Source: Acaryochloris marina MBIC11017
GTDB lineage: Bacteria > Cyanobacteriota > Cyanobacteriia > Thermosynechococcales > Thermosynechococcaceae
NCBI RefSeq assembly: GCF_000018105.1
Contig: NC_009926.1
Span: forward strand, 1-32,000
Length of the DNA: 32,000 bases
Reading direction: 5' to 3'
In this document: positions 8,739-25,456 of the stretch, one piece after another
Position numbering within the stretch: position 1 is the stretch's first letter
Layout of the letters: the number at the start of each line of letters is the position of its first letter
Made by a program: the position numbers and the translations under genes
The notes under the pieces: generated by a model
Database searches by the model: none
What the model saw: only the letters and a program-made list of their open reading frames with translations
What the model was told of the DNA's origin: nothing

Positions 8739-9581
8739 TTATTTGGACTGGGATTTTTGAGGTGGAGACTGAGTTTGAGCCGTTCTCTGAGTCGCTGATT
8801 TGCGCCGATAACTATCGGCTTGAATTTCGATAATCAAGCCATGATGAATTAAGCGATCAATGGCAGCCACCGCCATCATCGAATCAGTGAAAATGTCATC
8901 CCATTGGCTGAAGGGTTGATTCGCTGTAATCAACAAACTTTTTCGTTCATAGCGATGCGCAATTAATTCAAACAGAACGGACGTTTCCGCTTCCGACTTT
9001 TTGCAATAGCCCAAGTCATCCAAGATCAACAGATCATAGCGGTCCAGTTTTTTGAGCATTGGATGCAGCTGCAGTTGGAGCTTCGCCTGTTGCAGTTGCT
9101 GGACCAATGCGTTGGCTGCAAAGAACTTCACCCGCTTACCGAATTCCAGCATCTTTTTGGACACCCCAGTGGCCAGATGTGTTTTTCCAACACCCGAGGG
9201 CCCCAGAATAAGGCAATTCTCGGCGCGCTCCAACCAACCCGGATCTGCGGCTAATTGCATCAAGGGAGCTGGATTGAGCTGGGGACAATGGCTAAAGTCA
9301 AAGTTGGTAAAACTTTTTGCGTTTGGGAGCCTGGCTTCGGTGAGGGCACGTTTTAGACGAGCTTGTTCTCTTCGTTGGGCCTCCGTTTCGCACAAGGCTA
9401 GTAAGAATTCCGCATAAGACCAGTTTTCCTGCATGGCTTGGGATTCGATAGATTCCCAATGGGTCAACATGTGGGAGAGCCTGAGCTTTTTTAAATAGAG
9501 GCTCAGGTGCTGGTAGGGGCTCAGCGGGGACTGAGCAGGAGGGGAGGAGTTTGTCATAAAGTTCAAGTGAATGTTGTTCAA
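8739..9581 (-). CDS. istB: IS21-family helper ATPase IstB
   Basis: Walker A LILGPSGVGKTHLA, Walker B LLILDDLGY, and a typical IstB N-terminus (..WSYAEFLLALCETEAQRREQARLKRALTEARLP..KSFTNFDF). The true start may be the ATG at 9557. Confidence 0.9.
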   Translation of the reverse strand: MNNIHLNFMTNSSPPAQSPLSPYQHLSLYLKKLRLSHMLTHWESIESQAMQENWSYAEFLLALCETEAQRREQARLKRALTEARLPNAKSFTNFDFSHCPQLNPAPLMQLAADPGWLERAENCLILGPSGVGKTHLATGVSKKMLEFGKRVKFFAANALVQQLQQAKLQLQLHPMLKKLDRYDLLILDDLGYCKKSEAETSVLFELIAHRYERKSLLITANQPFSQWDDIFTDSMMAVAAIDRLIHHGLIIEIQADSYRRKSATQRTAQTQSPPQKSQSK

Positions 9582-11034
9582 TGCTGAGGTCAGGAACCTG
9601 CTTCATCTGAGGCGGCTCAAACTGTTTTTTCAGGCGATTGAGGGTAAGGCTGGATGAGCGAAGCTGCTGCTGTAAGTACACTGCTACGGCCTGTTCTTTA
9701 TCTTGAACCGCAGCAATATACAGGGCTTCCACGATGATCTTGGCAGCCTGCTCCAGGTCAAATTGGGCTTTGAGCTGTTCCCAGATTTGGCGGTATTCAG
9801 GATTGGGAAGTAGGTCTGATTGCCAGGTGCAATAGATAAAAGCACGAGGCTTCAATCGCATTGAACCAATAACATGGCGATAGTTGATGCAACGGTCGCG
9901 ACGTTTGCCTTTGCCACTGACGCGCTTCCTCGGCAATTCCACCACCGGGTGTCGCTCCAGATAGCCGACAATCCGGTCATGGTATAGATGCAGTTCCAAT
10001 TGACGACCAATCAGTCGAGAAGGGACGGTGTATAGAATGCAGCGAACATCGATGGTGCTGCGTTTGCTGACTTTAGCCGTGAGCACTTCATAGTCAGGGG
10101 TTCGATATTTGGGCAGTGGTTGTAGATGGTCTTTCTCTTGCTCATACTTGGTTTGGCACTGCTGATTCAACTTGGCAACCTGTGCATCAATTAAGGCTTG
10201 ATACTCAGCAACGCTCGTAAAATCTGCACTGCCGCGCAGATAGATCGCCTGCTTAATTCGGTTCTTCAGATGACCATGGGGAGATTCAATGGAGCCATTC
10301 TCATGGGCTACACCTTTGTTGTTACGAGTGGGTTCTAGCCGATAGTGGTCACACAGTTCGTCGTACAGACGAGTGAGGTTTTTGGACCGGCGGCCGCCCA
10401 TGTTGCGATAGGCTGCACTCAAACTATCAGTACGATGCTGTGTAGGAACACCTCCACAGGCTGCAAAGGCATTTTGCAATCCTTCTGAGAGGGCGACAAA
10501 GCTTTCGCCTCCTTCGATGATCTGGGCATATCGCCAGCCGCTGTATCCCAGACGGTAATGGTATATCAGGTGCTCAAAGGGTTTGCCGGCAATGGTAATC
10601 GTGATGCCCTTGAGTTCTGTAAAGTCGGAAAACCCTTGTACCCCGGGTTCATGACGCAATTCAAACATCACTTCAGGGCTTGGTCCATGTAAGGCTTTCC
10701 ACGTTCTCACCCGACGTTGTAGGGTCCGCAGGACTTGGGGATACTGGCCTGGATACTTATCCTGCAGGTACTCATACAGGGTCATGGGTTTGAGGCGTGG
10801 GTCTCGACGCAGCATTGGTTCTAGCTCGTCTTCCCACACATCAGCTAAGGGGTCGGGAACGGTGCGTTGGTCCTGAAGGCGGCCGCGATTAGGTTGATGG
10901 GTGCCGGCCTCAATTCGTTGTCCGGTTCTTGTAGATATTTCGGCAATGTAAGCTGCTTCAGCTTGTTTCAAGCCGAGGTCTCTTCCGTTCATATAAACAC
11001 GAGTATGATAGGAATCAATTCTTTTGTTAGGCAC
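9298..11034 (-). CDS. istA: IS21-family transposase IstA (DDE)
   Basis: N-terminal HTH region and a DDE core (..FSDFTE.., ..HRTDSLSAAY.., ..NNKGVAHENGSIESPHGHLK..). The ORF runs about 284 nt into istB in another frame. The last ~90 codons look off-frame, so the functional stop is probably expected near 9560. Confidence 0.85.
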   Translation of the reverse strand: MPNKRIDSYHTRVYMNGRDLGLKQAEAAYIAEISTRTGQRIEAGTHQPNRGRLQDQRTVPDPLADVWEDELEPMLRRDPRLKPMTLYEYLQDKYPGQYPQVLRTLQRRVRTWKALHGPSPEVMFELRHEPGVQGFSDFTELKGITITIAGKPFEHLIYHYRLGYSGWRYAQIIEGGESFVALSEGLQNAFAACGGVPTQHRTDSLSAAYRNMGGRRSKNLTRLYDELCDHYRLEPTRNNKGVAHENGSIESPHGHLKNRIKQAIYLRGSADFTSVAEYQALIDAQVAKLNQQCQTKYEQEKDHLQPLPKYRTPDYEVLTAKVSKRSTIDVRCILYTVPSRLIGRQLELHLYHDRIVGYLERHPVVELPRKRVSGKGKRRDRCINYRHVIGSMRLKPRAFIYCTWQSDLLPNPEYRQIWEQLKAQFDLEQAAKIIVEALYIAAVQDKEQAVAVYLQQQLRSSSLTLNRLKKQFEPPQMKQVPDLSIEQHSLELYDKLLPSCSVPAEPLPAPEPLFKKAQALPHVDPLGIYRIPSHAGKLVLCGILTSLVRNGGPTKRTSSSKTCPHRSQAPKRKKFYQL

Positions 11035-11237
11035 TTGTACAGCCCTCTATTGATTAGGGATGTAAAAAGTGTCTTTTTTCTTGAGATTGAATTCTAGAAA
11101 CGCGATCTCACACATCATTTCTAGGGAATTGAGATCTAGTTTTATCCTTCTCAGGGGATGCCTGGTTTCTTCATAGCTATAGCCGACGTGACATCGTCAT
11201 TAATCCGTCAGCTCGATTGTCGTCTAATAGGCAATGG

Positions 11238-13125
11238 TTGGTCCGACTTGGAAGCAAGACACGGTGGACTTAATCGGGTCAAGAATCGGCTTCAACGATC
11301 TGCCAAAAGGGATGCCTACGTTGTTCCCGCGAACTGTAGCCGCATTGGAGTCTTGAATGCCTTACGGGACAAGAATATCCCTGGTGCTGATACCGCCAAT
11401 CTTATCTGTGGCACCTGCATTGCCAGAGAAGCCTGTATCAATGCAGATGGGCCAGGGTATGGGTTCTTGAATCAGCGGCGCAATGTCCTAGGTGCCCCAC
11501 TGTTGAGGGCACATCCTGACTCACTGCCCGACCCAGAGGATTACCCACTGGAAAACACGATGCTGATCTGGGATGAACCCGGTCAGAACTTCCAGGTCAA
11601 GCAGTCCGTGACTGTTACCTTTAGCGACTTGCAGCAAACCATCACAACCCTGATTATCTATCCAGAAATCTTTGCCCTAGTGCAACCGTTGCTCTCAGCC
11701 CTCCTCCCCTTGATGGATGGGTCTATAAAGCTAGGGAAATATGGCTTAAATCATCTAGCCCTCAAAAGCCGTTTGCCCGATATGGCAGGAGTGAAACTCG
11801 GAGAAATCGCCCTAATCCTGATGCCCAACCTGGGATTCCTCAATACCTCTTCCGACTATGGGATTGACCTTGCAGACTTACCCAAGCAACTCAGAAAGAA
11901 GTTCTCTGAACGGGACTCGGAGATGGCAGAGCAGGCCAGGAATGGGGTGGTTAAACAGTGGCTCATTCCCCTGATCCGAATCCTGCAAGGAGGAGCAGGA
12001 TGTATCCAAGTCAGTCGCTATGGCCTCCTGACCCTTAATACCCCCAATCCTCGACATCGAGACTTAGCCCAAGCTGCTCAAGCCAATGTATTTCTCGATG
12101 CCACCCTCTCCCGTGAAGACTTAGCACTCAAGCTGGGTTGCTCTCCTGATGAAATCTTAGTAGTTCGTCAAGCCGTCCCAGACACCGGAAATCTGGAGGT
12201 GATTCAGGTGGCCGACATGGGGCGCGTGGGCATGAGTCGAGGTGGGGATCAGACCAAGCGCATTGATGCACTAGTCCAGCATTACCAAGATTTGGATGCA
12301 GTGAATACTAGGACTATCGATTTTAAGCAGTTTGAAAAGGATGGGGCCTGGTGGCGTGATAGCCGAGGGGTGAATGATTTCCTCACCGTTCAGACCCTAG
12401 TACTGGTAGGCACTCCCTGTCGTAACCTCAATGACTTAGCTGCTGAGTTTGCCATCACGAGCGGATACTACCCAGAGGAAGAAGATCCAGCGTTCAAAGC
12501 TTTCGTGGACCGATCGATACTAGCTGAGATTCACCAAGCGATTGGACGACTCAGAGCACATCGACGCCCTGGAGAATCCCTGCAAGTGGTGTTGATTTCC
12601 AATATCGATATGGACATTCCGGTGCAGCAGATCCAAGCCAAGGATCTGACGATTGAAGCCGCCCACAAAACGGAGCGGGTAAGACTTGCGATTGAATCAG
12701 CCATCCTCCAGCTCCAAGCCAAAGGCGAGAAGGTCACTCAGCAGATCGTCTCAGCGATGACCAAAATCCCCAGAGGGACGATTGCGCGATACTGGCGTCT
12801 GTTCATTTCGCTTTTAGATAGTTTTAATAGCAAAGTGAACAATTCCAAGAATGTGTCAGAGGCAGACCAAGACTGCCATCAAGCGATTGCGGGTGTTCTA
12901 GATGAGCTGGCGGATCTGCCTATAGATGACCTACTACCCAGCCTCAATGAAGTGTTCTTTGACTGGCTCAAACCCAGAGAATGGGCCAACGTCTGGGACA
13001 AGGTGAGCATATCGTGCCAGATGGCGATTCTAGAGGGGGTGGCGATGATGTTACCAGTGAAGCTGCTGGAGGAAACGTTGCCAGAAAAACCCAATCAAAC
13101 AGTTCAGTTGAGCCAACATGTCTAA
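11238..13125 (+). pseudogene. plasmid replication primase-helicase (CyRepA1-like), 3' part
   Basis: Continues ..WSDLEARHGGL.., with a Walker B-like MLIWDEPGQ, helicase C-terminal motifs (TLVLVGTPCRN.., HQAIGRLRAHRR) and a C-terminal helical domain. The track ORF start at 11158 lies inside the IS end. Confidence 0.75.
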
Positions 13126-13367
13126 AAAAAGCTTGTTAAAGATCAAAAGAGATCTTGCATACGTTGTAGAACTCTTTGCTTATAATTCTCTAGTGTTGCG
13201 AAAGGGTCAGATTAAGAGAATGTAGAGAACATATACTAACTTACAAAAACTTGCGATGATAACCTGTCCATAATCATAAGCAGTATTACCACTAGTTTAC
13301 TTAATTAGTGATAGAAACACTCAAGCTTTGTTTTTCAACTCAGTGTATAAACTGTATTAACCTAAAT

Positions 13368-14546
13368 ATGTTCAGAAATAAACCAGTGAAACCATCTGTG
13401 CTTGATATCTTCTGTGGAGCAGGTGGTATGAGCCTTGGTTTTCAGAAAGCTGGCTGCAAGATACTGGGTGGAATAGATAACAACCCACATGCTGTAAAAA
13501 CTCACCATCAGAATTTCCCTAAATGCAAGTTGAAACTTGATGCTACTGACATTCGTGACATAGAAAATCTTGAAGATCTTGGTATAGATCCTAAAGAAGT
13601 AGACATTCTAATTGGTGGACCACCATGTCAAGTCTTTTCCAGAGTTGGCATTGGAAAAATGAAAAATCATTTAAAGCGAAATATTGAACAAGATCCAAGA
13701 AATTTTTTATACAAGGAATATATCCGATTTCTTCGTTATTATAAGCCTCTATTTTTTATAATAGAAAACGTTGATAATCTTGCAAATAAAAAAGATATAT
13801 TAGAAACAATTATAAAAGAATTAGAAGCTTGTGGATATCGAGTTGAATACAACGTTTTAGATGCATCAGATTTTGGAGTTCCTCAGCGAAGACTTAGGAT
13901 TTTTATCATCGGGTCACGCCTAGATCTAGGATGGAAACCAATTTTTCCAAAATCAAAAACTAAAATACCACTTACTGTCGGGGAAGCCATCAGTGACTTA
14001 CTTGAACTTCAACCTACTGCTATGCCTTTAAAACTCAAATCTAGTGGGCCTAAACAGAAAGATTGTGAACTACCATATCGTAGTGCGCCTGAATCAGGGT
14101 ATCAACGTATCATGCGACGATATAACGGTGATCTTGTAAGAAACCATATATGCCGTGCTCATAACTATGAAGATCTAAAAATATTTGACATGCTGAAACA
14201 AGGACAAAAATATGGTGATTTACCTCAGGAGGTAATGCGTTATCGGGTCGATATTTTTAAGGATAAGTACAAACGTCTTATCTGGGATGATCTATCTTGG
14301 ACACTAACTGCTCATATGCGTAAAGATTGCTTAGCCTACATTCACCCTACTCAAATACGAAGTATTTCAGTCAGAGAGGCTGGTAGGATTCAGAGTTTTC
14401 CTGATAACTTTATATTCTATGCGCCAATGACAAGAATGTTTGAGCTTGTGGGCAACTCAGTCCCCCCTCTTCTGGCTGAGTCTGTAGCGAAACCTATAGT
14501 AAAAAAGATTCGTGAATATTATAATGTACTAAGCTTAAAAGAATAA
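13368..14546 (+). CDS. DNA (cytosine-5)-methyltransferase
   Basis: Motif I DIFCGAGGMSLGF, motif IV GGPPCQVFS, motif VI FIIENV, motif VIII QRRLRIFIIG, motif IX-like RSISVREAGRIQSFPD, motif X GNSVPPLL. ATG at 13368; the track ORF begins at an upstream GTG. Confidence 0.93.
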   Translation: MFRNKPVKPSVLDIFCGAGGMSLGFQKAGCKILGGIDNNPHAVKTHHQNFPKCKLKLDATDIRDIENLEDLGIDPKEVDILIGGPPCQVFSRVGIGKMKNHLKRNIEQDPRNFLYKEYIRFLRYYKPLFFIIENVDNLANKKDILETIIKELEACGYRVEYNVLDASDFGVPQRRLRIFIIGSRLDLGWKPIFPKSKTKIPLTVGEAISDLLELQPTAMPLKLKSSGPKQKDCELPYRSAPESGYQRIMRRYNGDLVRNHICRAHNYEDLKIFDMLKQGQKYGDLPQEVMRYRVDIFKDKYKRLIWDDLSWTLTAHMRKDCLAYIHPTQIRSISVREAGRIQSFPDNFIFYAPMTRMFELVGNSVPPLLAESVAKPIVKKIREYYNVLSLKE

Positions 14547-14709
14547 TTAGCTAAGAATTATAAGAATAGATTTTTTAGCATATATTTATCTAACGGGATA
14601 TTTAAAATATTCATATATTTACTCCAATTTTAAATCCTAATAATAACATTCTTAACTGAGAATACTTCAAAAGTTATTTTTCCTTAGTAGAAATATTTCA
14701 GCAACGCTT

Positions 14710-16881
14710 ATGTCTCATAGTTCTATATCATCAGTTTCAACCTCTTTGCCACTACGTCCTAGGGCTCGATTACTGAGAACAATCGGAGATGAGTTAATTA
14801 GTAGCGAAATAGTTGCTGTAATTGAATTAGTAAAAAATGCTTATGATGCCGACGCTACTATTGTTTTAGTTAAATTTATTGAACCTCTTGAGACTGGTAA
14901 AGGATCAATTGAAATTATCGACAATGGTAATGGTATGTCACTCAAGATCATTGAAAAATCTTGGATGGAACCAGCAACTTTTTCAAAGAAAAATACTAAA
15001 TTTAGTAAGATTTATCGTCGTCGATTTTTAGGAGAAAAAGGTGTTGGGAGATTTGCAACATCAAAATTATCTGACTTTTTAGAAATCGTTACGAGGTATA
15101 TAGAGTCAGATAATGAAATACGAGCAATTTTTGATTGGAAGCAATTTGATGATGAAGAAAAATATTTAGATCAAGTAGAAGTTTTATGGGATATGACTAG
15201 CCCTGATGAAATTTGTTCTGAGGGTTCAATTATGATGTTGTATGACTCATGTGAGATTAGAGGTTCGGATGGAATCACGCATGGAACTATTCTACGAATG
15301 TCAGATCTTAGAGCTAATTGGGACAGGGACCAGCTTCTACTTCTTCGAACTGCCTTATCCCGATTAATTTCTCCATTCAGTGATGCGAAAGACTTTCAAG
15401 TCATTTTAGATCTGCCAAAACAATATGAAAATCTTTCTGGTAAAGTAGAGACTCCTAGAGTATTTGAAAAGCCTCCATACCGTATTAATGGAAAGGTAGA
15501 TTCTGAAGGAAATGCCAATCTTATTCTGAATGTTATGGGTAAAGATCCCCAACATATTTCAGAAGTTTTAGGGAAGGATAAAAATATACCTCAATGTGGA
15601 CCATTTGAGGTGGATATTCGAGTGTGGGACTTAGACAGAGATTCATTAAAACTATTAGTAAAAGATCAACAATCTACATTAAAAGATATTCGTAAAGATA
15701 TCAAGGACATAGCAGGAATTAACATTTACAGAGATCAATTTCGTGTGCTTCCATATGGAGAGAGAGACAATGACTGGTTGAGATTGGACATAAGGAGAGT
15801 ACAGGCTCCAACACTTCGCTTATCGAATAATCAGATCGTCGGGTACATACTCATTTCTTCTGACCTAAATCCCGAATTAAGAGATCAAAGTAACCGGGAG
15901 GGGATCGTAGAAAGCCAAGCATTAAGAGATTTACGATTCTTAGTAAGAACTATCCTAGCTAAACTTGAGGCTGAAAGATATAATACTCGTCGACAACAAG
16001 AGCAAGAAACTCCCATTTCTAGCCAAGGAAGCCTCTTTGGAAATTTTAATCTTGATCCGCTTCGGACAGCTCTAACCGAAAAATATGGTAAAGAGAAAGA
16101 TCTCATAGGCATAATTGATAGCCAGGAAAAACAGCTTGAAGAGAGAGTAAAAGTCGTAAAAGAGGTGTTATCTAGATATCAACGCCTTGCTTCACTTGGA
16201 CAATTAATAGATACTATTCTTCACGATGGTCGAGCTCCATTATATAAGATTGATAATGAAGCTACATTACTAATTAAAAATATTGAGAAATCTGATAATA
16301 ATAATTCATTATTTGATAAATTAAAAAAACGAGGCGAATCGATAAAAAAATATTCTTCACTATTAGGAAATCTTTTCAAAAAAATTGAACCTTTTGGAGG
16401 ACGCAAGCGAGGTCGTCCTAAAAAAATAATTCTTGAAGAAGTTATTTCAGATGCATTCATGCTGTTAGAAAGCGATCTAAACAAAGCAAACATTAAAATT
16501 CATATTCCAACAACTAAAACTACAGTTTTTGTCGAGTCTTCTGAGTTACAGCAGGTGATTATGAATCTTGTTGATAACAGTATATATTGGCTTAATAGTG
16601 TTGACGAAGATAAGAGATATATTAATGTATCTATTTCAAATAAGGAAAATCCTTCTGATGGAATTGATATTATATACTCTGATTCTGGTCCAGGTATAGA
16701 AGAAAAATTTAGAGAACATATTTTTGATCCATATTTTTCTACTAAACCTGATGGTGTCGGCCTTGGATTAGCAATTGCTGGGGAGATTTTAACAGAGTTT
16801 TACGAAGGAAGTTTAGAGCTGATAGAGAATACTTCTTCTTCTGGAGTTACATTCCGTATTCATCTAAATAAGAGAGTTTAG
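14710..16881 (+). CDS. dual-GHKL protein: N-terminal MORC/MutL-like ATPase module fused to a HisKA + HATPase_c histidine kinase core
   Basis: N-terminal Bergerat motifs: VIELVKNAYDADA (N-box), IEIIDNGNGM (G1), GEKGVGRFA (G2). C-terminal kinase motifs: H-box LIDTILHDGRAPL (His505, codon 16222-16224), N-box VIMNLVDNSIYW, G1 YSDSGPGI, F-box FDPYFSTK, G2 GVGLGLAIA. No transmembrane segment or classical sensor domain is visible. Confidence 0.8.
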   Translation: MSHSSISSVSTSLPLRPRARLLRTIGDELISSEIVAVIELVKNAYDADATIVLVKFIEPLETGKGSIEIIDNGNGMSLKIIEKSWMEPATFSKKNTKFSKIYRRRFLGEKGVGRFATSKLSDFLEIVTRYIESDNEIRAIFDWKQFDDEEKYLDQVEVLWDMTSPDEICSEGSIMMLYDSCEIRGSDGITHGTILRMSDLRANWDRDQLLLLRTALSRLISPFSDAKDFQVILDLPKQYENLSGKVETPRVFEKPPYRINGKVDSEGNANLILNVMGKDPQHISEVLGKDKNIPQCGPFEVDIRVWDLDRDSLKLLVKDQQSTLKDIRKDIKDIAGINIYRDQFRVLPYGERDNDWLRLDIRRVQAPTLRLSNNQIVGYILISSDLNPELRDQSNREGIVESQALRDLRFLVRTILAKLEAERYNTRRQQEQETPISSQGSLFGNFNLDPLRTALTEKYGKEKDLIGIIDSQEKQLEERVKVVKEVLSRYQRLASLGQLIDTILHDGRAPLYKIDNEATLLIKNIEKSDNNNSLFDKLKKRGESIKKYSSLLGNLFKKIEPFGGRKRGRPKKIILEEVISDAFMLLESDLNKANIKIHIPTTKTTVFVESSELQQVIMNLVDNSIYWLNSVDEDKRYINVSISNKENPSDGIDIIYSDSGPGIEEKFREHIFDPYFSTKPDGVGLGLAIAGEILTEFYEGSLELIENTSSSGVTFRIHLNKRV

Positions 16882-16882
16882 T

Positions 16883-18049
16883 ATGTTTGAAATTACTACT
16901 TGGAGACTACTTATTGTTGATGATGATGAGGAAATATGTAAACAAGTTAAAGAAATATTAGAGGACGAAGAAATTAACAATGTTAGACTTTCTATTATAA
17001 TTACAACCGATTTTAATGATGCACTTGAAATCTTAGAGAATCAACGGATTGATCTCATCATCCTTGATGTTCGCGAAGGTTCACATGATGATAATCCTTC
17101 AGAAGAAATTGGAATAATTACATTAAACAAGATAAAAGAGAAGTGTTTTTTACCTATAATCTTTAATACCGGATTACCAAATCTAGTTGAACACTTAAGA
17201 TCTAACCTTATTCGTATTGTTCGAAAAGGAAAATCTGAAGAGTTATGGAATGAAATCAACAATGTATTTACAAGTAACCTACCAATTATTAATCGAGCAT
17301 TAGTACATCATTTCGAAGAGATACAGCGTCAATATATGTGGGAATTCATAGCTGATAATTGGCAAAGTATTTCTAGAGATAATGATAATCATGAATTAGC
17401 ACATTTATTAGCTCGAAGAATTTCTTTATCTTTATCAGCCGAAGAAATTTTAAGTTGGGTTTCACAACTAGGATTTACAAGTAAGGATTCAATTAAAAAA
17501 GAAGAGGTATCTCAAAGCCACCCTATTACTTATTACTTAATACCTCCTATTTCGAATTATCCACGACCTGGTGATTTATACGTTAAAGATAAAGAGGATA
17601 ATCCTACATATTGGGTTATTCTTAATCCATCTTGTGACTTTATTATTCGCAAGAATGGCAAGTGTAAAGTGGAGTATATCTTACTTGCTAACGCAAGTAA
17701 ATTGTCTGATCAAGAAGAGTATAAAAGCTGGTGTTTAAATTATTCAAACAGTCAAAAGAAAAAATTGATTAAACTAATTCAGGATAATAGAGAAGGTCAG
17801 TCAGAGCGTTTTTATTTTTTACCTGGTGTATGTGATTTTCCCGATTTAATTGTCGATTTCCAAGTTGTTGTTAGTATTAAGTATGATGATTTATCCAATG
17901 GAGCTTATAATCGGCTTGCTTCACTCGATAGTCCTCATGCTGAAGCCTTACTTACTAGATTCTCTCGGTACTTTGGCAGAGTAGGAAAACCTGACTTAGA
18001 TGCCGAAAGTATTCTATCTAAACTGCAGGAGGTTATCAGCAAGGATTAA
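16883..18049 (+). CDS. response-regulator receiver (REC) domain protein with an unknown ~260-aa C-terminal output domain
   Basis: REC signatures: LLIVDDDEE acidic pocket, DLIILD (Asp62, codon 17066-17068), IIFNTG, VRKGK. The start codon lies 1 nt after the kinase stop (TAG-t-ATG). The C-terminal domain (..PGDLYVKD..WVILNPSCDF..RFYFLPG..LIVDFQ..ASLDSPHAEALLTRFSRYFGRVGKPDL) matches nothing I can name. Confidence 0.8.
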   Translation: MFEITTWRLLIVDDDEEICKQVKEILEDEEINNVRLSIIITTDFNDALEILENQRIDLIILDVREGSHDDNPSEEIGIITLNKIKEKCFLPIIFNTGLPNLVEHLRSNLIRIVRKGKSEELWNEINNVFTSNLPIINRALVHHFEEIQRQYMWEFIADNWQSISRDNDNHELAHLLARRISLSLSAEEILSWVSQLGFTSKDSIKKEEVSQSHPITYYLIPPISNYPRPGDLYVKDKEDNPTYWVILNPSCDFIIRKNGKCKVEYILLANASKLSDQEEYKSWCLNYSNSQKKKLIKLIQDNREGQSERFYFLPGVCDFPDLIVDFQVVVSIKYDDLSNGAYNRLASLDSPHAEALLTRFSRYFGRVGKPDLDAESILSKLQEVISKD

Positions 18050-18083
18050 GTATTTTTATTATCCTAAACACGCTAATCCAAAA

Positions 18084-18107
18084 CCTTGCACATTAGTGCA
18101 AGGCTTT
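18084..18107 (+). terminator. hairpin terminator after the REC-effector gene
   Basis: CCTTGCAC-atta-GTGCAAGG, an 8-bp perfect stem, followed by CTTT, 35 nt after the stop at 18049. The U tract is weak. Confidence 0.5.
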
Positions 18108-18180
18108 AGCTGCTACACACCTCTAAAAATAGAGATTTATAATACTAACAGCTAGAGGTTTTCATATCAAATCAGATCGA

Positions 18181-18301
18181 TAAGTTGACGACGCAGCTCT
18201 AGATTGGGACTTTCAGTCCCTTCTTTAACCTCTGGACTTTCAGTCCAGAGTGGTTAAGTTTAAAATTTTTTTCATCCATCATATTCTAAGCAGTCAACTT
18301 A
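18181..18301. repeat. twin palindromes GGACTTTCAGTCC bracketed by a 9-bp inverted repeat
   Basis: GGACTTTCAGTCC occurs at 18207-18219 and 18234-18246, centre-to-centre 27 bp. Each extends to a 5-6 bp stem hairpin. TAAGTTGAC at 18181-18189 and GTCAACTTA at 18293-18301 flank them. Confidence 0.6.
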
Positions 18302-18506
18302 CACAACTTAGAAGAGCTGTTTCAAGTTTGCCAGGGGTAATTCGAAATCACTGGAAGTCCGTAAAGAGCAAGGGCACTATGGAGAATCTAGTTACGCAAT
18401 ATTCTTGGTTCTAAACTTTCTCCCAGAAAATTAAACAGCTCTGGACTGCTTAGGGTTTTCTCTTTTTTTACTTTGACAATTTATATAGTCCAACAGTTAT
18501 CTAATA

Positions 18507-18652
18507 GAAATGAGAAAATCAGCTGCCCCGCTTCAAGCAGACGGGGTATGGAATACGATTTGCTCCCAAACCGTAGATTTGGATTACAATCCCATTTCTT
18601 TGCTGCAAGCAGCGGGAAATCTACCCTCACTAGATTAAATATTTCTCATTTT
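18507..18652. other. inverted-repeat-bounded structured element (~145 bp), possible ncRNA or MITE-like relic
   Basis: AAATGAGAAA (18509-18518) pairs with TTTCTCATTT (18642-18651). Inside are the hairpin CCCCG-11nt-CGGGG (18526-18546) and two similar direct motifs: GCTTCAAGCAGACGGGG (18530-18546) and GCTGCAAGCAGCGGG (18602-18616). The 60-aa track ORF here looks non-coding. Confidence 0.3.
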
Positions 18653-18831
18653 TAAATCAGCTTTTCAGCACCCTCACTGACTCCAACCCAGCCTGCACAA
18701 TCTCCTCAATCTGCACCATCGTCTTCAGTAGGCGCAGCCCAATTACCCGATCAGCACGAAAAATACCTCCAAAGATGCAACTACTTCCAGAAACTGATCA
18801 AAAACTCAATCCGACCAAACACAGGTGCAGT

Positions 18832-19429: not shown

Positions 19430-22400
19430 TTAGTACAAGAAATTTGCAGGATTTAGTCTTTGACCAGAAGGGTCTCGGATCTCAAAATGTAAATGTGGTC
19501 CTGTTGTTCTACCGCTGTTACCAGAGAGGGCAATCACTTGGCCTTGCTTAACAGGATCACCTATTTGCACATTTGTAGCTGATAAATGCCCATAAACCGT
19601 AACATAACCGCTACTGTGCTGAATAAACACAAAATTGCCGTACCCTCCGCCACATCTAGACTCCAAGTGACCCTGCTGAGGACAATCTACTTTAACAGCA
19701 GTGACGACACCTCCATCTGATGCCCTAATTTCAGATCCTATCGGTGTACCGTAATCAATACCTCTGTGGAATCCTAATGATCGCGGACCATAGGGCGAAG
19801 TTATAGGATACTCAGTTGGTAAGTCAAACTGTCCAGTGGTTATCCCATCTCCCTGAACAAACGGCCCTAATTGACCATTAAGGTTACTCGCGATCGCACC
19901 AGGCGAACCCGGCACCCCAGCCACCTGTGAAGGCTTACAGGGCACCCCAGCCGAAGCCACCGTAGCAGGCGCATTGGTCGAAGCATCTCCAGTTGACCCA
20001 TACTTCTCAAAATTGGCTGGATTACTCCACACCTCACTTTCTTCAGGTCCACCGGGCAGCGAGGTCCATTGCCAAGGACTCAGCACCCTGTCTGCCAGGG
20101 CAAAGTTCCCTCGCTGAATCGCACCGATTAGATCAACATTCTTCTCAGCCCCAATGATTTTGATCCACTCCACCGCTGCTTGAGCCGCAACCGCCCGATC
20201 CCGTGTCCAGCCATCCAGCCCCGTTCGTTGCAGAAGGGACTGCCTAGACTCTGGTGTAAATTGATAAATTCCATAAGCACCTGTCTTAGGATTGGGCCTC
20301 CAATTCGTCCCATCCGTGCTTTCTCCAATTCTGATTCGGGCTAGATATTGCCTCAGATTATGGTCAGGATCGGCGGGGGCTGAATGGGTTGATGAGCCCT
20401 GACTTTGGCTATTGCTAGCGCTATTATTAAAGGTTGCCGCTGCTTGATCCGTACCCACATACCGCCAATGCCACGGCTCATAGCTCACCCCTTGGCTATT
20501 CCCCTTAGGAAACGACAGCTCAAACCCATACTTCCCCGCATTCTGCTGCATCCAGGCATATTCAGGAGTGTTAGCCCAAGATTCATTCAGGTAGGGATTC
20601 GCATTATTTCCTACATCCACGGCTAACCCCGTATGGTGCTCACTGTGGCCTGCGGGTGCTGATATCTTCGCTGCTGCTTCTGGAGAACCTTGCTCAGCGA
20701 CCTGGTCCGAGAACAACTCTTCTTGCAGCTTTCTATCCCGAAAGCCTGATACCGCCTTGATATCCAATCCTTGAGCCGCTGCATCAGCCCGCATTTGCTC
20801 AAAGGCTGACGCTGCATCTTGAGTCAGGCCAACTGTAGCCCCATCCACCGCAGTCACTTCATAAAGCTGTTCATCGGTTTCCTCATAGGGAAGATGCCCA
20901 TACTTAGTATTTGCGGCTCCCGCATCACTCTGGCCCGCTGTCGCAATAATCTGGTCGGGGTCGCAGTACACCCCAGCAGCCAAAGTTTGATTTCTCAAAC
21001 GTGCAAGACTAGCAGGCAAGTTCCGCCGACTCGCGACGAGGAACAGCCCATCTTCTTTGACAACATACGGTGTTGGAATCACCAGAAAGTGAGGTGTACA
21101 TTGCTGGCCGAGCAAGGGAATCATGACGCAGAACTGAAAGGCGACACTGAGCTTAGCCGTACTCTTTTGGTCGGGATACTCCGTGATTTTCTTGAGGACA
21201 AACTTGGTATGGCTATTCACCCCAAACGGATGAATCCCCGCAGGTTCCCAGCCTCCATTCACCCACTTCAGCAGTCCTTTTCCTCCTTTAACCCCTTGGC
21301 CATTCTTGCCCCCTGAGTCTCCTTGCACCCATTGTTTCCCTTCGATATCGTCATCCCCCGTCGCTTGGGCTACTGGAGAGCTGATAAACTTCCGCATCTC
21401 AAAATGGGGGCAGTTATCCGCTCTTTGGTTTTGGGTCTGGCCGAGGGTGCATTTGATGGGTCTAAACTTTTGGTTTTCACTGCCACCGGATAGCGAATGT
21501 TGGATGGAAGGCTCCTCTGGCCCCTCAACTCCGCTATAGGCAATATCAAACCTCGCGAATAAGTCCCCCGCAAAAAAGCTAAAGGCTAGGTCAAAAGGGA
21601 GCTTATCAATCGGAATCTCTGAGAGGCCAGGAACAGAGTTGATGGTCTTGTCCTTCGCTCCAGGTATCTCTTCAATCGCCATGTCCGCAATCTTAGGTAG
21701 GGTCTGCTCAATGGGCTGATTGACCAGATCGGGGACGGCACCCAAGGGCAAATTCTTTAGTTCAGGCACGGCCTTGATCACTTCCTTGACAGCAACATCT
21801 GTTCCTTTTGCCAAGATATAAGCTTGTGCCCGTTTCCTCACCTGTTGCCAGTTACCATTTATCGCATCACCGACGAGAGGGACAACCTGATTAACGGGCA
21901 GTTTCTTGAGGGTGGGGCCAATCTTCTTACCAATCCCCGCTAGCTGAATCTGCTCAGCCTTGGAGATGACCCCCTGCCAATTACCCCGTGCTAGGTCTTG
22001 AAGCGGAATCCCTTTAAAAGCGGGTATCTTGCTGAGTCTAGTAATCAGCACTTTCTCTCCTGTAGTCAGGGCGGCTTGCTGGAGCTGTTTACCTGCTTGA
22101 GAAGGGTCATACAATACCCCTAAAGCTGCTTGGATGGCCGGGGCGGCATCATCAACGGTGATTTTCTCGCCATTGTTGATCTTGGTGTAGAGTTTATCGA
22201 TTTCATCAACCGTCAGGCCATAAACGAGGGGCACATCGCCAATGGGTAATCCTGCAATATCCGTCCCCTGTTTAGCTGAAATATCTCGTAAGGTCAGTTT
22301 GGTGAAGGATGCCGTGACGGGATTTTGCTGTAAGTCTCCAAACTTGAGGATTTGATCAGGAGTCGCCCCTTGAGGCCATGCCCGATCTACTTGGTAAGGA

Positions 22401-22636
22401 AGCTGCACTCCATTGGGTAAGGGTGGGATTTCGACATAGCCAGCTTGCTCAGCCGTCGTTAGTTGTCGAAACGTAGGGGACGGTCCAGGATCGGGATCAT
22501 AGTAAAGTCCCGGTAAGTTGACGGGGGTATCTGGGCTAAGTGCTGCCGTCTGTTGCTGCTGTTGAGCTAGAGCAGGGGCTATCTGCGTCAAAGTCGGTAG
22601 ACCAGCCAGGGCCATAGCTATGAGTTTCTTTTTCAT
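19430..22636 (-). CDS. large secreted multi-domain peptidoglycan hydrolase (M15/VanY-like + lysozyme/transglycosylase-like + M23)
   Basis: Signal peptide MKKKLIAMALAGLPTLTQIAPALAQ (ATG 22636). VanY/M15 motifs: SGFRD..SEHHTGLAVDV..YEPWHWRY. Lysozyme-like motif: IGESTDG...GAYGIYQFT. M23 motifs: HRGIDYG...GPHLHFEI. The N-terminal ~600 aa are unassigned. Confidence 0.85.
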   Translation of the reverse strand: MKKKLIAMALAGLPTLTQIAPALAQQQQQTAALSPDTPVNLPGLYYDPDPGPSPTFRQLTTAEQAGYVEIPPLPNGVQLPYQVDRAWPQGATPDQILKFGDLQQNPVTASFTKLTLRDISAKQGTDIAGLPIGDVPLVYGLTVDEIDKLYTKINNGEKITVDDAAPAIQAALGVLYDPSQAGKQLQQAALTTGEKVLITRLSKIPAFKGIPLQDLARGNWQGVISKAEQIQLAGIGKKIGPTLKKLPVNQVVPLVGDAINGNWQQVRKRAQAYILAKGTDVAVKEVIKAVPELKNLPLGAVPDLVNQPIEQTLPKIADMAIEEIPGAKDKTINSVPGLSEIPIDKLPFDLAFSFFAGDLFARFDIAYSGVEGPEEPSIQHSLSGGSENQKFRPIKCTLGQTQNQRADNCPHFEMRKFISSPVAQATGDDDIEGKQWVQGDSGGKNGQGVKGGKGLLKWVNGGWEPAGIHPFGVNSHTKFVLKKITEYPDQKSTAKLSVAFQFCVMIPLLGQQCTPHFLVIPTPYVVKEDGLFLVASRRNLPASLARLRNQTLAAGVYCDPDQIIATAGQSDAGAANTKYGHLPYEETDEQLYEVTAVDGATVGLTQDAASAFEQMRADAAAQGLDIKAVSGFRDRKLQEELFSDQVAEQGSPEAAAKISAPAGHSEHHTGLAVDVGNNANPYLNESWANTPEYAWMQQNAGKYGFELSFPKGNSQGVSYEPWHWRYVGTDQAAATFNNSASNSQSQGSSTHSAPADPDHNLRQYLARIRIGESTDGTNWRPNPKTGAYGIYQFTPESRQSLLQRTGLDGWTRDRAVAAQAAVEWIKIIGAEKNVDLIGAIQRGNFALADRVLSPWQWTSLPGGPEESEVWSNPANFEKYGSTGDASTNAPATVASAGVPCKPSQVAGVPGSPGAIASNLNGQLGPFVQGDGITTGQFDLPTEYPITSPYGPRSLGFHRGIDYGTPIGSEIRASDGGVVTAVKVDCPQQGHLESRCGGGYGNFVFIQHSSGYVTVYGHLSATNVQIGDPVKQGQVIALSGNSGRTTGPHLHFEIRDPSGQRLNPANFLY

Positions 22637-22676
22637 GGGGAAATGCTGTGGTGCGATAAAGGAATGTACCGCCAGC

Positions 22677-22714
22677 AAAAACGGCCCCGATCTGAGCTAT
22701 TAACTGAAGTGTTC
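22677..22714 (+). repeat. 38-bp direct repeat, copy A (left of NACHT gene)
   Basis: AAAAACGGCCCCGATCTGAGCTATTAACTGAAGTGTTC matches copy B at 25430-25467 at 33 of 38 positions. Confidence 0.7.
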
Positions 22715-22918: not shown

Positions 22919-25456
22919 GTGATTTCTTGGCTAAACAACTGGCATACAACGCCTTGGCTCTGGTTGCTTGCAAACACCACAGCAAAAGGAAAAGATGACT
23001 CAAGAATCAAGCAGATCCTAGATTTTCTCAACAACATTCCGATGATCGGCTGGGGAATTGCTGGGTTCGCGTTGGTGGCAATGGCAACAGCAGCGATCGC
23101 TAAGTGGACAGGCAACCTTGAAAAAATCATCGTATTTTCTCAAAAATATCTCTTTCGCAAAACACCAGAGATTATCGAAGCAAAAAGACAAAAAGCCCGA
23201 CAAAAGCTGATTAAAGTTTTACTTGGGCAAGTTGTTAAACGCTTGGAAAACTCTTTACATCACAAAATCCCTATTGATTTGAGGCATGAGGAGCAACCAC
23301 AACGGGTTGGACAACGGAATTTACCAACTGTTCAAGACGAAGAAGTCTCTGAGAATTTCATCAATCGAACATTCAATCCCTTCACGGAAAACGCTCTACA
23401 CGAGGCTGAAAGCACCCAGAAATCTACTCAAAAACTCTTAGAACGGGAGGACATTCAGGGACGTTTATTGATTTTGGGAGAACCGGGGTCTGGAAAGACA
23501 AATGAACTGTTAGTTCTAGCTAGGGACTTACTGATAAAAGCACAGCAATCTCCAGATAAACCAATCCCAGTAATCTTTGAGCTATCTGAATGGAATGACA
23601 ACCAGGAGCTTGATGAATGGCTTGCTCAGCAATTATTTGAAAAGCACAAAATCCCATTAGATGTTTCTAAACACTGGATGAGACAAAAACAGCTGCTTCC
23701 TCTATTGGATGGCCTGGACGAGCTTAGCAAAATAGAAGGGAGTGAAGAAGTTTCATCAAAAGAACTTGACCAAGGTCAAATCAAAGAACTGATTCAATGT
23801 GTAAGGGAAATCAATACCTTTATTAGTATTTTCTCTTTACCTCTTGTTGTGTGTTGTCGGCGCAAAGAATATGAAGCACTCGAAGCACAAGGTGAATCTC
23901 TCAAGTGTTTGAACGGAGCTATAGATTTACAACCTCTCAGTGATAAGCAGATTAAAGAATATCTTCAGAAATTAAAGCGGGAATCTTTATGGGAAGTACT
24001 TCAAAGCCAGCCTGAACTTCCGGAATTTATCCGTTCACCATTGTTTCTACTTATTTTGGCGGTTGTATATAAAGGGGAACACATTAGCAGTGAAGAAGAA
24101 TTGCTTGACGAATACATAACTAAACAACTAAATTCGGCCAGCAAAAAGGCTTACCAAAAAAGAATTCGTTCCAAGTTGCGGCCGAGTAAATTCTATATAA
24201 AAAAACTTGGTAAAGAACCTGCTCCAGAGAAAACTCATTATTACCTGAGCTGGTTAGCAAGCAAACTGGATTTTGAAGGAAAAACTGAGTTCCTAATCGA
24301 ACAAATTCAACCTACATTGTTAGATACTGCAAAGGCTCGAAAACATTATCGTTGGATTTCTGGGCTGATGTATGGAGTGATTATAAGTTTGTGTTTTGGG
24401 TTGATAGGAGGGTGGTGGATCGGTCTAGTATTCGGTTTAATTGGGGGACTAAGTATTGTACTGAGTGAAAATAAAAAGCCAAAGAAGTATAGATTCTCAT
24501 GGAAAGGATTCTGGGAAGCAGGACTGATTTATGGGTTAATTATTGGGTTTCTTAAAGATCTTAATCTTGGTTTGTGTTTTGGACTGAGTGGAGGACTGAG
24601 TAGAGGACTGAGTAGAGGACTAGGTGACAGCCAAAAACCTGAAAAGCTGAGATTATTCTGGAAAAGCTTTTGGAGGGCAGGAGTAATTTTTGGACTAATT
24701 TTTGGACTCAGTGGAAGTCTGCGTAGAGGACTTGCTGGAGGGATTATTGGAGGGCTTAGTGAAGGGCTTATAGAAGGACTGAGTAGAGGACTGAGTAACA
24801 TCAAAACATCAGAAAAGTTCAGCTTTTCATGGAAAAGTTTTTGGAGAGTAGGGTTTAGTATTGGACTGACTATTGCGATTATTGGAGGGCTTAGTGAGGG
24901 GCTTACAGAAGGACTGAGTAGAGGCGTCTTGATTGCATTAACTGGAGGGTCAAGTATTGGGTTTATCGCTGGGCTGATTGAAGGAATAGAAAATTCTGAT
25001 ATTGATGTTCAGGATAAAACAACTCCTAATCAAGGAATTAAAACTTCTATCAGAAATGGGATAATTGTTGCAATAGTATTTGGACTGTGTGCTGGGCTAA
25101 TTGGTGGACTGAGTGAAGGACTAGTTTTCGTGTTGGCTAGTGGGTCGAGTAGGGGGATATTTGTTAGGATGGCTGTTGGGTTGAATGTCGGACTGATTGC
25201 TGGACTGATTGCTGGACTGATTGCTGGGATAGACGCAGTCTTTAAACACTTTTTCTTGCGTATAGTCCTCTACCAATCTGGAGTTGCCCCCTGGAACTAC
25301 GCAAGATTCCTCGAACATGCCGAAAACCATCGATTCATCCAGCGAGTAGGTGGCCGCTACCGCTTTGTCCATGACCTGCTAAGAAAAAGGTTCACGGCAA
25401 CTTTGAATGAGGAGAAAAATAAAGAAAAAAAAAACGGCCCAGATCGGAGCCGTTAA
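22919..25456 (+). CDS. NACHT-family P-loop NTPase with a C-terminal glycine-zipper transmembrane repeat region
   Basis: Walker A LILGEPGSGKTNEL, Walker B LLPLLDGLDEL, and a short N-terminal TM helix (MIGWGIAGFALVAMATAAIA). The C-terminal ~330 aa are repeats of basic-W-motif plus GL-rich helices. The track start is GTG 22919; an alternative ATG is at 23042. Confidence 0.8.
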   Translation: MISWLNNWHTTPWLWLLANTTAKGKDDSRIKQILDFLNNIPMIGWGIAGFALVAMATAAIAKWTGNLEKIIVFSQKYLFRKTPEIIEAKRQKARQKLIKVLLGQVVKRLENSLHHKIPIDLRHEEQPQRVGQRNLPTVQDEEVSENFINRTFNPFTENALHEAESTQKSTQKLLEREDIQGRLLILGEPGSGKTNELLVLARDLLIKAQQSPDKPIPVIFELSEWNDNQELDEWLAQQLFEKHKIPLDVSKHWMRQKQLLPLLDGLDELSKIEGSEEVSSKELDQGQIKELIQCVREINTFISIFSLPLVVCCRRKEYEALEAQGESLKCLNGAIDLQPLSDKQIKEYLQKLKRESLWEVLQSQPELPEFIRSPLFLLILAVVYKGEHISSEEELLDEYITKQLNSASKKAYQKRIRSKLRPSKFYIKKLGKEPAPEKTHYYLSWLASKLDFEGKTEFLIEQIQPTLLDTAKARKHYRWISGLMYGVIISLCFGLIGGWWIGLVFGLIGGLSIVLSENKKPKKYRFSWKGFWEAGLIYGLIIGFLKDLNLGLCFGLSGGLSRGLSRGLGDSQKPEKLRLFWKSFWRAGVIFGLIFGLSGSLRRGLAGGIIGGLSEGLIEGLSRGLSNIKTSEKFSFSWKSFWRVGFSIGLTIAIIGGLSEGLTEGLSRGVLIALTGGSSIGFIAGLIEGIENSDIDVQDKTTPNQGIKTSIRNGIIVAIVFGLCAGLIGGLSEGLVFVLASGSSRGIFVRMAVGLNVGLIAGLIAGLIAGIDAVFKHFFLRIVLYQSGVAPWNYARFLEHAENHRFIQRVGGRYRFVHDLLRKRFTATLNEEKNKEKKNGPDRSR
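24340..25240 (+). repeat. intragenic tandem repeats (~165-170 bp units, plus 15-bp and 12-bp micro-repeats)
   Basis: Unit starts lie near 24470 (KKYRFSWKGFWEAG), 24631 (EKLRLFWKSFWRAG) and 24800 (EKFSFSWKSFWRVG). GGACTGATTGCT occurs 3 times at ~25190-25230 and GGACTGAGTAGA 2 times at ~24591-24614. Confidence 0.8.
25425..25454 (-). terminator. strong intrinsic terminator for the minus-strand T4SS operon, embedded in the NACHT 3' end
   Basis: Minus strand reads AACGGC-uccgaucugg-GCCGUU followed by ten U (A-run at 25425-25434). It lies 36 nt downstream of the small ORF stop at 25490. Confidence 0.6.

Follow-up and report, generated by a model that had tools for sequence, protein, structure and literature searches.

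We examined a 32,000-nt window of Acaryochloris marina MBIC11017 DNA (contig NC_009926.1, positions 1 to 32,000) that carries a gene for a kinase with two ATPase modules. This gene is the middle member of a three-gene cassette, in the order C5 cytosine DNA methyltransferase (C5 methylase), kinase and receiver protein, and the cassette is held by an island of low GC content (Table 1). The gap between the kinase stop codon and the receiver start is 1 nt, and the two genes are translationally coupled. The locus is a cyanobacterial member of a published methylase-linked two-component family, of which a homolog has been experimentally characterised.

Table 1 Features of the cassette, with nucleotide positions in the window and residues of the encoded proteins
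Feature	Position	Strand	Residues	Details
Low-GC island holding the cassette	13126..18230	.		5.1 kb; GC 0.34 vs 0.50 in left flank and 0.48 in right flank
C5 cytosine DNA methyltransferase (Dcm-type)	13368..14546	+		Likely start ATG 13368, 392 aa; open reading frame opens at GTG 13308
paraMORC-histidine kinase (AbrB homolog)	14710..16881	+		723 aa, ATG start
N-terminal GHKL ATPase domain	14812..15165	+	Kinase 35-152	N-box E39/N43/D46, G1 D71-G73-G75, G2 K110-G111-G113; Pfam HATPase_c_3
N-terminal N-box ELVKNAYDA			Kinase 39-47	
N-terminal G1 IDNGNGM			Kinase 70-76	
N-terminal G2 GEKGVGRF			Kinase 108-115	
Middle domain, transducer-like	15166..15915	+	Kinase 153-402	Foldseek alignment to MORC2/MORC3/SMCHD1 modules
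Middle-domain block INIYRDQFRVLPYGERDNDWLRLD			Kinase 337-360	
Helical stalk and DHp	15916..16395	+	Kinase 403-562	Model helices 403-433, 463-527, 533-562
H-box LHDGRAPL			Kinase 504-511	Contains H505
Phospho-acceptor H505 codon	16222-16224	+	Kinase 505	H-box LH[DE]GRxP
AT-hook-like basic linker GGRKRGRPKK	16396..16425	+	Kinase 563-572	Between DHp and catalytic domain; sub-threshold Pfam AT_hook, E 0.03-0.1
Catalytic ATP-binding (CA) domain	16426..16878	+	Kinase 573-723	N/G1/F/G2 boxes; Pfam HATPase_c; Foldseek and PDB matches FixL, ZraS, HK853, CpxA
C-terminal N-box NLVDNSIYWL			Kinase 619-628	
C-terminal G1 DSGPGI			Kinase 658-663	
F box IFDPYF			Kinase 671-676	
C-terminal G2 GVGLGL			Kinase 682-687	
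Receiver (REC) domain	16883..17272	+	Receiver protein 1-130	Pfam Response_reg (PF00072), E 9.2e-8; D13/D14, D62, T96, K115
Receiver phospho-acceptor D62 codon	17066-17068	+	Receiver protein 62	
Helical linker and conserved C-terminal output domain	17273..18049	+	Receiver protein 131-200 (linker), ~201-388 (output domain)	Model and conservation
Output-domain motif P249-S250-C251-D252 (P-[SA]-C-D)	17633-17635 (C251)	+	Receiver protein 249-252	Invariant
Terminator-like hairpin GGGACTTTCAGTCCC with T-rich tail	18206..18220	+		Downstream of receiver gene; consensus scan; count not above shuffle expectation

A motif check along the whole kinase found every motif quoted in a first-pass annotation of this DNA at its expected place. 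The three N-terminal GHKL motifs fall within a Pfam HATPase_c_3 domain (PF13589, residues 35-152, E = 1.8e-17), and the C-terminal kinase core with H, N, G1, F and G2 boxes is likewise present, with HATPase_c at residues 611-721 (E = 1.9e-21). This double-ATPase architecture is far beyond chance. The database holds thousands of kinase relatives, and the best 120 were all full-length with the same architecture. Across these 120 homologs, E39, N43, D46, D71, G73, G75, K110, G111 and G113 of the N-terminal module were invariant, as were H505, N623, G660, F672 and G682/684/686 of the kinase core. In relatives both near and far, the H505-D506 pair was invariant or conservatively exchanged (H-[DE]-G-R-x-P). 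The boxes of canonical HisKA-type histidine kinases, together with a DHp and a catalytic domain, are all present, and histidine kinase activity is predicted from the sequence. A profile search against PDB matched residues 475-724 to the kinase cores of FixL, ZraS and HK853 (E to 4e-26) and residues 27-96 to MutL (E = 1.5e-5).

Pfam yielded no PAS, GAF, TPR or HisKA match in the kinase, and the maximum Kyte-Doolittle mean over 19 residues was 1.13, which led us to regard the protein as soluble and free of membrane segments. Because the kinase has neither a canonical sensor domain nor a membrane segment, the MORC-like module is the only candidate for the input, as the first-pass annotation had argued; its idea that DNA or the methylation state of DNA serves as the cue fits the adjacent C5 methylase. 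Its implication of a one-off or unrecognised design was not supported. Apart from the thousands of relatives, the architecture was published in 2021 (PMC8011034), and AbrB, the kinase of the Ambrosia system, is a validated defence sensor (bioRxiv 10.1101/2025.09.30.679545).

Structure prediction and Foldseek comparison, both proposed in that annotation, were applied to the kinase. The AlphaFold2 model, built from 120 homologs, had a mean predicted local distance difference test score (pLDDT) of 83 and a predicted template modelling score (pTM) of 0.75. Foldseek searches against PDB matched the two parts of the chain to two different sets of structures, in line with the claim of two Bergerat-fold modules in one polypeptide. 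The N-terminal ~480-500 columns matched MORC2 with DNA (9cdj, E = 4.5e-13), the MORC3 ATPase-CW structures 5ix2 and 6o1e, and the ATPase module of SMCHD1 (6mw7). The alignments span the entire MORC2, MORC3 and SMCHD1 ATPase modules with a template modelling (TM) score of ~0.5 normalised to the target, a correspondence at the level of the overall fold. The C-terminus matched FixL chimeras, ZraS, HK853 and CpxA. On the basis of the MORC2, MORC3 and SMCHD1 matches, we take the ~300 residues after the GHKL domain as the probable transducer-like portion of such a module, and the N-terminal ~400 residues are predicted to fold like a MORC-type GHKL-plus-transducer ATPase. The stretch that contains INIYRDQFRVLPYGERDNDWLRLD, previously described as unassigned, does lack a Pfam match (residues 153-402). 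Its signature block, GINIYRDxFRVLPYGE..DWLRLD..RRVQ.PT...SNNQIVGY......NP.L.DQSNREG, is kept in distant plasmid homologs and in AbrB. Long modelled helices (403-433, 463-527 and 533-562) lead from the ATPase module into the DHp.

The basic linker between the DHp and the catalytic domain resembles an AT-hook, which is unusual for a histidine kinase and may allow contact with DNA, judging from its sequence. Within the close clade the motif hardly varies, and G564, R565 and P570 do not vary at all; distant relatives are only generally basic here.

Family libraries offer a plainer description of the kinase. The best partial matches in NCBIfam were AtoS, ZraS and FixL-type proteins, and the family is annotated simply as 'sensor histidine kinase', labels that would suit a conventional kinase for environmental sensing, in which the N-terminal GHKL domain has degenerated into a non-catalytic remnant and the methylase neighbour is coincidental. 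However, all of these matches lie far below the curated cut-offs, and the N-terminal ATP-binding residues are invariant in the 120 homologs as well as in distant relatives of 32% identity. The linkage to a methylase holds across phyla, and the N40A exchange in AbrB abolishes function (10.1101/2025.09.30.679545). This explanation is essentially excluded.

The receiver protein, 388 aa long and 100% identical to an Acaryochloris marina protein, begins with a receiver domain in which D14, D57, D62, T96 and K115 were nearly invariant (>=90%) across 120 homologs. Foldseek aligned this domain to AdeR, RR468 and others with TM scores of 0.75-0.85, and weak PADLOC matches pointed to the candidate receiver-containing defence proteins PDC-M60B and PDC-M60C. 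Both ATP-binding modules of the kinase, its phospho-histidine and the aspartate pocket of the receiver are intact and conserved.

Beyond the receiver domain, ~260 residues had no match in Pfam, NCBIfam, PADLOC, PHROGs or PDB sequences. The model of the protein (pLDDT 89.7) places three helices (133-195) after the receiver domain, followed by a domain rich in beta strands that closes with a long helix. L176, R178, P214, Y218, P221, G230, P249, C251, D252, R366 and G368 were invariant across close relatives and distant plasmid relatives of 22-27% identity. A profile of the output domain found 2170 representative clusters, 299 of them at E <= 1e-30, nearly always behind an N-terminal region of ~130 residues, and none of the 150 best representatives had an alternative architecture. 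The output domain is a dedicated receiver-coupled module described by no curated library.

Structural comparison gave one lead to the nature of this domain. All listed Foldseek matches of the receiver protein in PDB were to its receiver domain, and a search of viral structures returned a PemK/MazF toxin (TM 0.65 normalised to the 108-aa target, probability 1.0, E = 9e-3) and, in addition, one phage 'endoribonuclease'. The order of strands and helices agrees with that of MazF, whose toxin family has an SH3-like barrel with a helix at the C-terminus. Sequence profiles did not bear this out. PDB sequence-profile and PHROGs searches with the output domain stayed at noise level, PemK_toxin (PF02452) had no Pfam match in the receiver protein at E up to 10, and hhalign of the output domain against MazF gave P = 0.18, with 29 of 150 column-shuffled controls scoring at least equally. 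The MazF reference sequences used were confirmed as PemK_toxin by Pfam; the fetched loci contained no MazF homologs with which to widen the profile. Unlike MazF/PemK/CcdB toxins, the output domain does not conserve the catalytic Arg and Thr of MazF and has an invariant Cys-Asp pair instead. With the profile comparison non-significant and these catalytic residues unconserved, we treat the MazF fold as a lead and not as a result. That the output domain is a previously undescribed, phosphorylation-switched effector, possibly with a MazF/CcdB fold and a new Cys-Asp active site, is a tentative proposal with the odds against it.

The family to which these genes belong was delineated by Bellieny-Rabelo, Pretorius & Moleleki in 2021 from 644 regions encoding a soluble kinase-like protein that combines HATPase_c_3, a new DHp (HEF_HK) and HATPase_c (PMC8011034). 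In those regions a receiver-like gene (Response_reg_2) adjoins the kinase gene, a C5 methylase lies upstream and Vsr often lies downstream; descent of HEF_HK kinases from paraMORC ATPases was proposed (PMC8011034). The window kinase has their 'group 1' architecture, with N-terminal HATPase_c_3 and C-terminal HATPase_c, and like them it is soluble. Its H505-D506 corresponds to the HEF_HK core, a His followed by an acidic residue in a DHp that HisKA does not match. The acidic pair, phospho-Asp, Thr and Lys of Response_reg_2 recur in the partner as D13/D14, D62, T96 and K115, and the Dcm-type methylase gene (13368-14546) takes the upstream position. The window locus thus shows every descriptive feature of the 2021 family (PMC8011034). 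The Pfam models PF19191 (HEF_HK) and PF19192 (Response_reg_2), which may be narrow or missing from the library searched, matched neither the window kinase nor its partner at E up to 10, and they were equally without matches in the Enterobacter, Hymenobacter, Campylobacter and Bacillus relatives and in the precomputed labels of 360 listed homologs. The receiver domain of the window, in contrast to Response_reg_2, is recognised by canonical PF00072. The main text of PMC8011034 never mentions cyanobacteria, mentions archaea once and does not describe the C-terminal domain of the receiver protein.

The experimentally characterised relative is Ambrosia (AbrR-AbrA-AbrB-AbrC-AbrD), an anti-phage system validated in Pseudomonas aeruginosa in a 2025 preprint and reported from Gammaproteobacteria only (10.1101/2025.09.30.679545). 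It consists of an XRE regulator (AbrR), an N6 adenine methylase (AbrA), a kinase/HSP90-like ATPase (AbrB), a receiver (AbrC) and an HNH nuclease (AbrD), all required for defence; AbrB N40A, in the N-terminal GHKL N-box, and AbrC D60A each abolish phage defence (10.1101/2025.09.30.679545). We compared AbrB through its first 400 residues (Table S1 of the preprint). BLASTP aligned kinase residues 14-402 with AbrB 11-398 at 31% identity (E = 1e-49), the signature middle block included, and this similarity indicates that the kinase is a homolog of the sensor of a validated defence system. The two proteins share the same Pfam architecture, and each is accompanied by a receiver protein and a DNA methylase, a mix of restriction-modification and two-component parts. 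AbrC and the window receiver protein showed no significant pairwise similarity, and a profile aligned the receiver domain alone (P = 0.01). Where Ambrosia has an N6 methylase, an XRE regulator and a separate HNH nuclease, the window cassette has a C5 methylase and neither XRE nor HNH; phmmer searches with one protein each found no relatives of AbrD, HNH_2 or XRE in the window.

The Ambrosia precedent also suggests a purely regulatory two-component system, in which the kinase would sense infection, the phosphorylated receiver protein would be a transcription factor for the methylase or other genes and its C-terminal domain would bind DNA. The Ambrosia genes are induced upon infection and AbrC is reported with a winged helix-turn-helix (10.1101/2025.09.30.679545), XRE regulators occur in 8 of the 79 related loci described below, and the three-helix segment (residues 133-195) after the receiver domain would offer a place for such a function. 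Against this, no helix-turn-helix or other DNA-binding family was detected in residues 131-388 of the receiver protein at E up to 10, the cassette has no nuclease gene to regulate, and AbrC is related at the level of the receiver domain only. The conservation of the C-terminal domain, an invariant Cys-Asp pair with Arg and Tyr fixed at several positions, is what an active site would more typically show. We regard a purely regulatory role as unlikely.

A survey of one genome per species yielded 79 loci with genes for receiver-protein relatives, distributed over Chloroflexota, Cyanobacteria, Actinomycetota, Verrucomicrobiota, Planctomycetota, Bacteroidota, Bacillota and Omnitrophota among bacteria and over Methanoregula and Woesearchaeota among archaea. 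A kinase gene lay directly upstream of the receiver gene in at least 72 of them, and most of the others had the receiver gene at a contig edge or only partly matched. C5 methylase genes were found in ~61 loci, usually upstream, and HNH nuclease genes in two. Across phyla, kinase and receiver genes are inherited together, in most cases along with a C5 methylase.

Full-length but distant relatives of the two proteins were also found on plasmids of Enterobacter, Hymenobacter and Bacillus and on many conjugative Campylobacter plasmids, with identities to the window proteins of 22-27% for the receiver proteins and 32-33% over the full length for the kinases. These pairs are set among toxin-antitoxin and defence genes, and three of the four plasmid loci examined have an annotated Dcm gene in the vicinity, the exception being Enterobacter. 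Searched at the DNA level with the Enterobacter locus, E. coli genomes gave no match. The kinase-receiver-methylase unit is a mobile, conflict-associated cassette; the kinase singled out by the first-pass annotation is real, but in viewing it as a single gene that account missed its membership of such a unit.

Vsr, confirmed by Pfam (2e-31), occurs in 33 of the 79 loci, usually right behind the receiver gene. One reading of the kinase is a MutL-like repair accessory: the MORC-like ATPase and Vsr would mend T:G mismatches arising when 5-methylcytosine made by the neighbouring methylase is deaminated, with the phosphorelay tuning repair. Stimulation of Vsr by MutL is known from E. coli (discussed in PMC2292703), and the N-terminal motifs of the kinase match MutL in the PDB search. 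This is nevertheless a very improbable reading, for the window holds no Vsr, not even a remnant, and relatives free of Vsr and of methylase exist.

Two further gene arrangements were seen in the survey. In 14 loci (e.g. L042:8142-8660), an open reading frame (ORF) of ~172 aa without a Pfam match lies directly downstream of the receiver gene, the position of Vsr elsewhere; its family sequence …VDALSRNGDRYSIKT… hints at a small PD-(D/E)xK-like nuclease. A Binatia locus without a C5 methylase has an HNH_2 endonuclease gene (L001:3830-4822) directly upstream of the kinase gene, an arrangement intermediate between the window cassette and Ambrosia.

The N-terminal module connects the kinase to other restriction-associated ATPases. 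The MORC and paraMORC GHKL ATPases of restriction-modification systems described by Iyer, Abhiman & Aravind in 2008 (PMC2292703) share with the window family GHKL motifs I-IV, followed in the window kinase by a predicted transducer-like domain, and gene linkage to methylases, Vsr and restriction components. Their output is a fused or neighbouring nuclease or a helicase, whereas the window kinase would pass its signal through a histidine-kinase core to the receiver protein. GHKL-plus-nuclease paraMORC3 proteins, represented by the Shedu nuclease VcSduA, are validated defence nucleases (PMC12137116). Kinase residues 22-234 resemble the N-terminal ~200 residues of the BbrUII/HgiDII type II restriction enzymes (NF050001 in NCBIfam, REase_II in PADLOC; E = 1.3e-14 and 6e-10), but the score is 53.7 against a family cut-off of 550 bits, and where those enzymes have a C-terminal nuclease, the kinase has its DHp and catalytic domains. 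Detocs, a defensive two-component system, reportedly uses a kinase-to-receiver-effector phosphorelay in phage defence. Its likeness to the cassette lies in logic only; it has another sensor domain and effector and is not known to include a methylase, with homology confined to the generic kinase and receiver domains.

The cassette appears foreign to its surroundings. Related Acaryochloris plasmids lack the low-GC island, and a near-identity search of the plasmid collection matched the flanks alone; no flanking direct repeats marking an insertion were found beyond short ones at chance level. The methylase matched Pfam DNA_methylase over its full length (E = 7.8e-70), NCBIfam dcm (1.2e-63) and PADLOC MTase_II (1.8e-95), and the motifs FCGAGG, PPCQ, ENV, QRR and GNSVPP are all present. 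The same 392-aa product is called on independent assemblies, where the three cassette genes recur together. The hairpin downstream of the receiver gene is only suggestive of a likely operon end. Because the number of sites in a promoter scan was no higher than in shuffled sequences, we claim no promoter. Two short stretches, 18054-18199 and 18517-18656, match DNA of several Acaryochloris plasmids that is non-coding or integrase-adjacent, at 91-95% identity, and a 21-nt inverted repeat (18241-18261 / 18428-18448) lies near them. These may be small dispersed repeats that mark the right edge of the island.

Taken together, we propose, with a probability of roughly 60%, that the kinase is the sensor of a horizontally acquired cassette of C5 methylase, paraMORC-kinase and receiver-plus-output protein, belonging to a restriction-modification-associated two-component family and most likely directed against foreign DNA or phages. 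By analogy with MORC, MutL and GyrB, the N-terminal GHKL domains would dimerise on binding ATP and form a clamp for engaging DNA or some other cue of infection. Through the helical stalk (residues 403-527), this conformational change would reach the DHp and set H505 autophosphorylation, carried out by the C-terminal catalytic domain. From H505 the phosphoryl group would then pass to D62 of the receiver and switch the conserved C-terminal domain, which would be the output. Given that the cassette has no separate nuclease gene, we lean towards an effector (an enzyme or toxin) over a regulator for this domain. The methylase may mark the host's own DNA, which is an assumption because the Ambrosia methylase does not protect phage DNA.

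Several observations weigh against the proposed defence role. The authors of Ambrosia favour transcriptional control and showed that the methylase does not protect phage DNA (10.1101/2025.09.30.679545). Its AbrC, at 209 aa, has no C-terminal domain, in contrast to the window protein of 388 aa with its extra conserved domain, and some related loci have no C5 methylase nearby. Searches of Pfam, NCBIfam, PADLOC, PHROGs and PDB sequences recognised no nuclease or toxin domain in the cassette.

The surroundings of the island contain further genes. Upstream lies an IS21-family pair (8739-11034, minus strand) of IstB (E = 5e-65) and a Mu-transposase-like IstA, which fits a mosaic, mobile neighbourhood. 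An ORF of 655 aa with host-like GC (11158-13125, plus strand) abuts the island and has no match in Pfam, NCBIfam or PADLOC. To the right, a 1082-aa protein (19430-22678, minus strand) has a long region rich in Gln, Ala and Pro, followed by the domains of a VanY D-Ala-D-Ala carboxypeptidase and an M23 peptidase; its homologs on Acaryochloris plasmids are labelled vanY-like in PLSDB. About 5 kb downstream of the cassette, an 845-aa ORF (22919-25456, plus strand) encodes a NACHT ATPase (E = 3e-9) and may be another conflict or STAND-type immunity gene.

These findings assign the double-ATPase kinase to a widespread and already recognised class of two-component conflict systems linked to methylases, and connect the purely bioinformatic description of 2021 to the first experimentally validated relative, Ambrosia. 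The locus stands apart from Ambrosia in its methylase type, in having no XRE or HNH genes and in the Cys-Asp output domain fused to its receiver protein. Its clade, spanning cyanobacteria, Chloroflexota, Actinomycetota, Verrucomicrobiota and archaea, is large and makes the proposed gating of a histidine kinase by a MORC-type clamp and the role of the output domain testable, and the fused output domain deserves follow-up more than any other part. Should it prove to be an effector, MORC-like sensing would be coupled directly to a phosphorylation-gated toxin. Such a system would amount to 'restriction by phosphorelay', in which a DNA-reading MORC-type clamp licenses a toxic enzyme post-translationally, unlike the transcriptional route proposed for Ambrosia.

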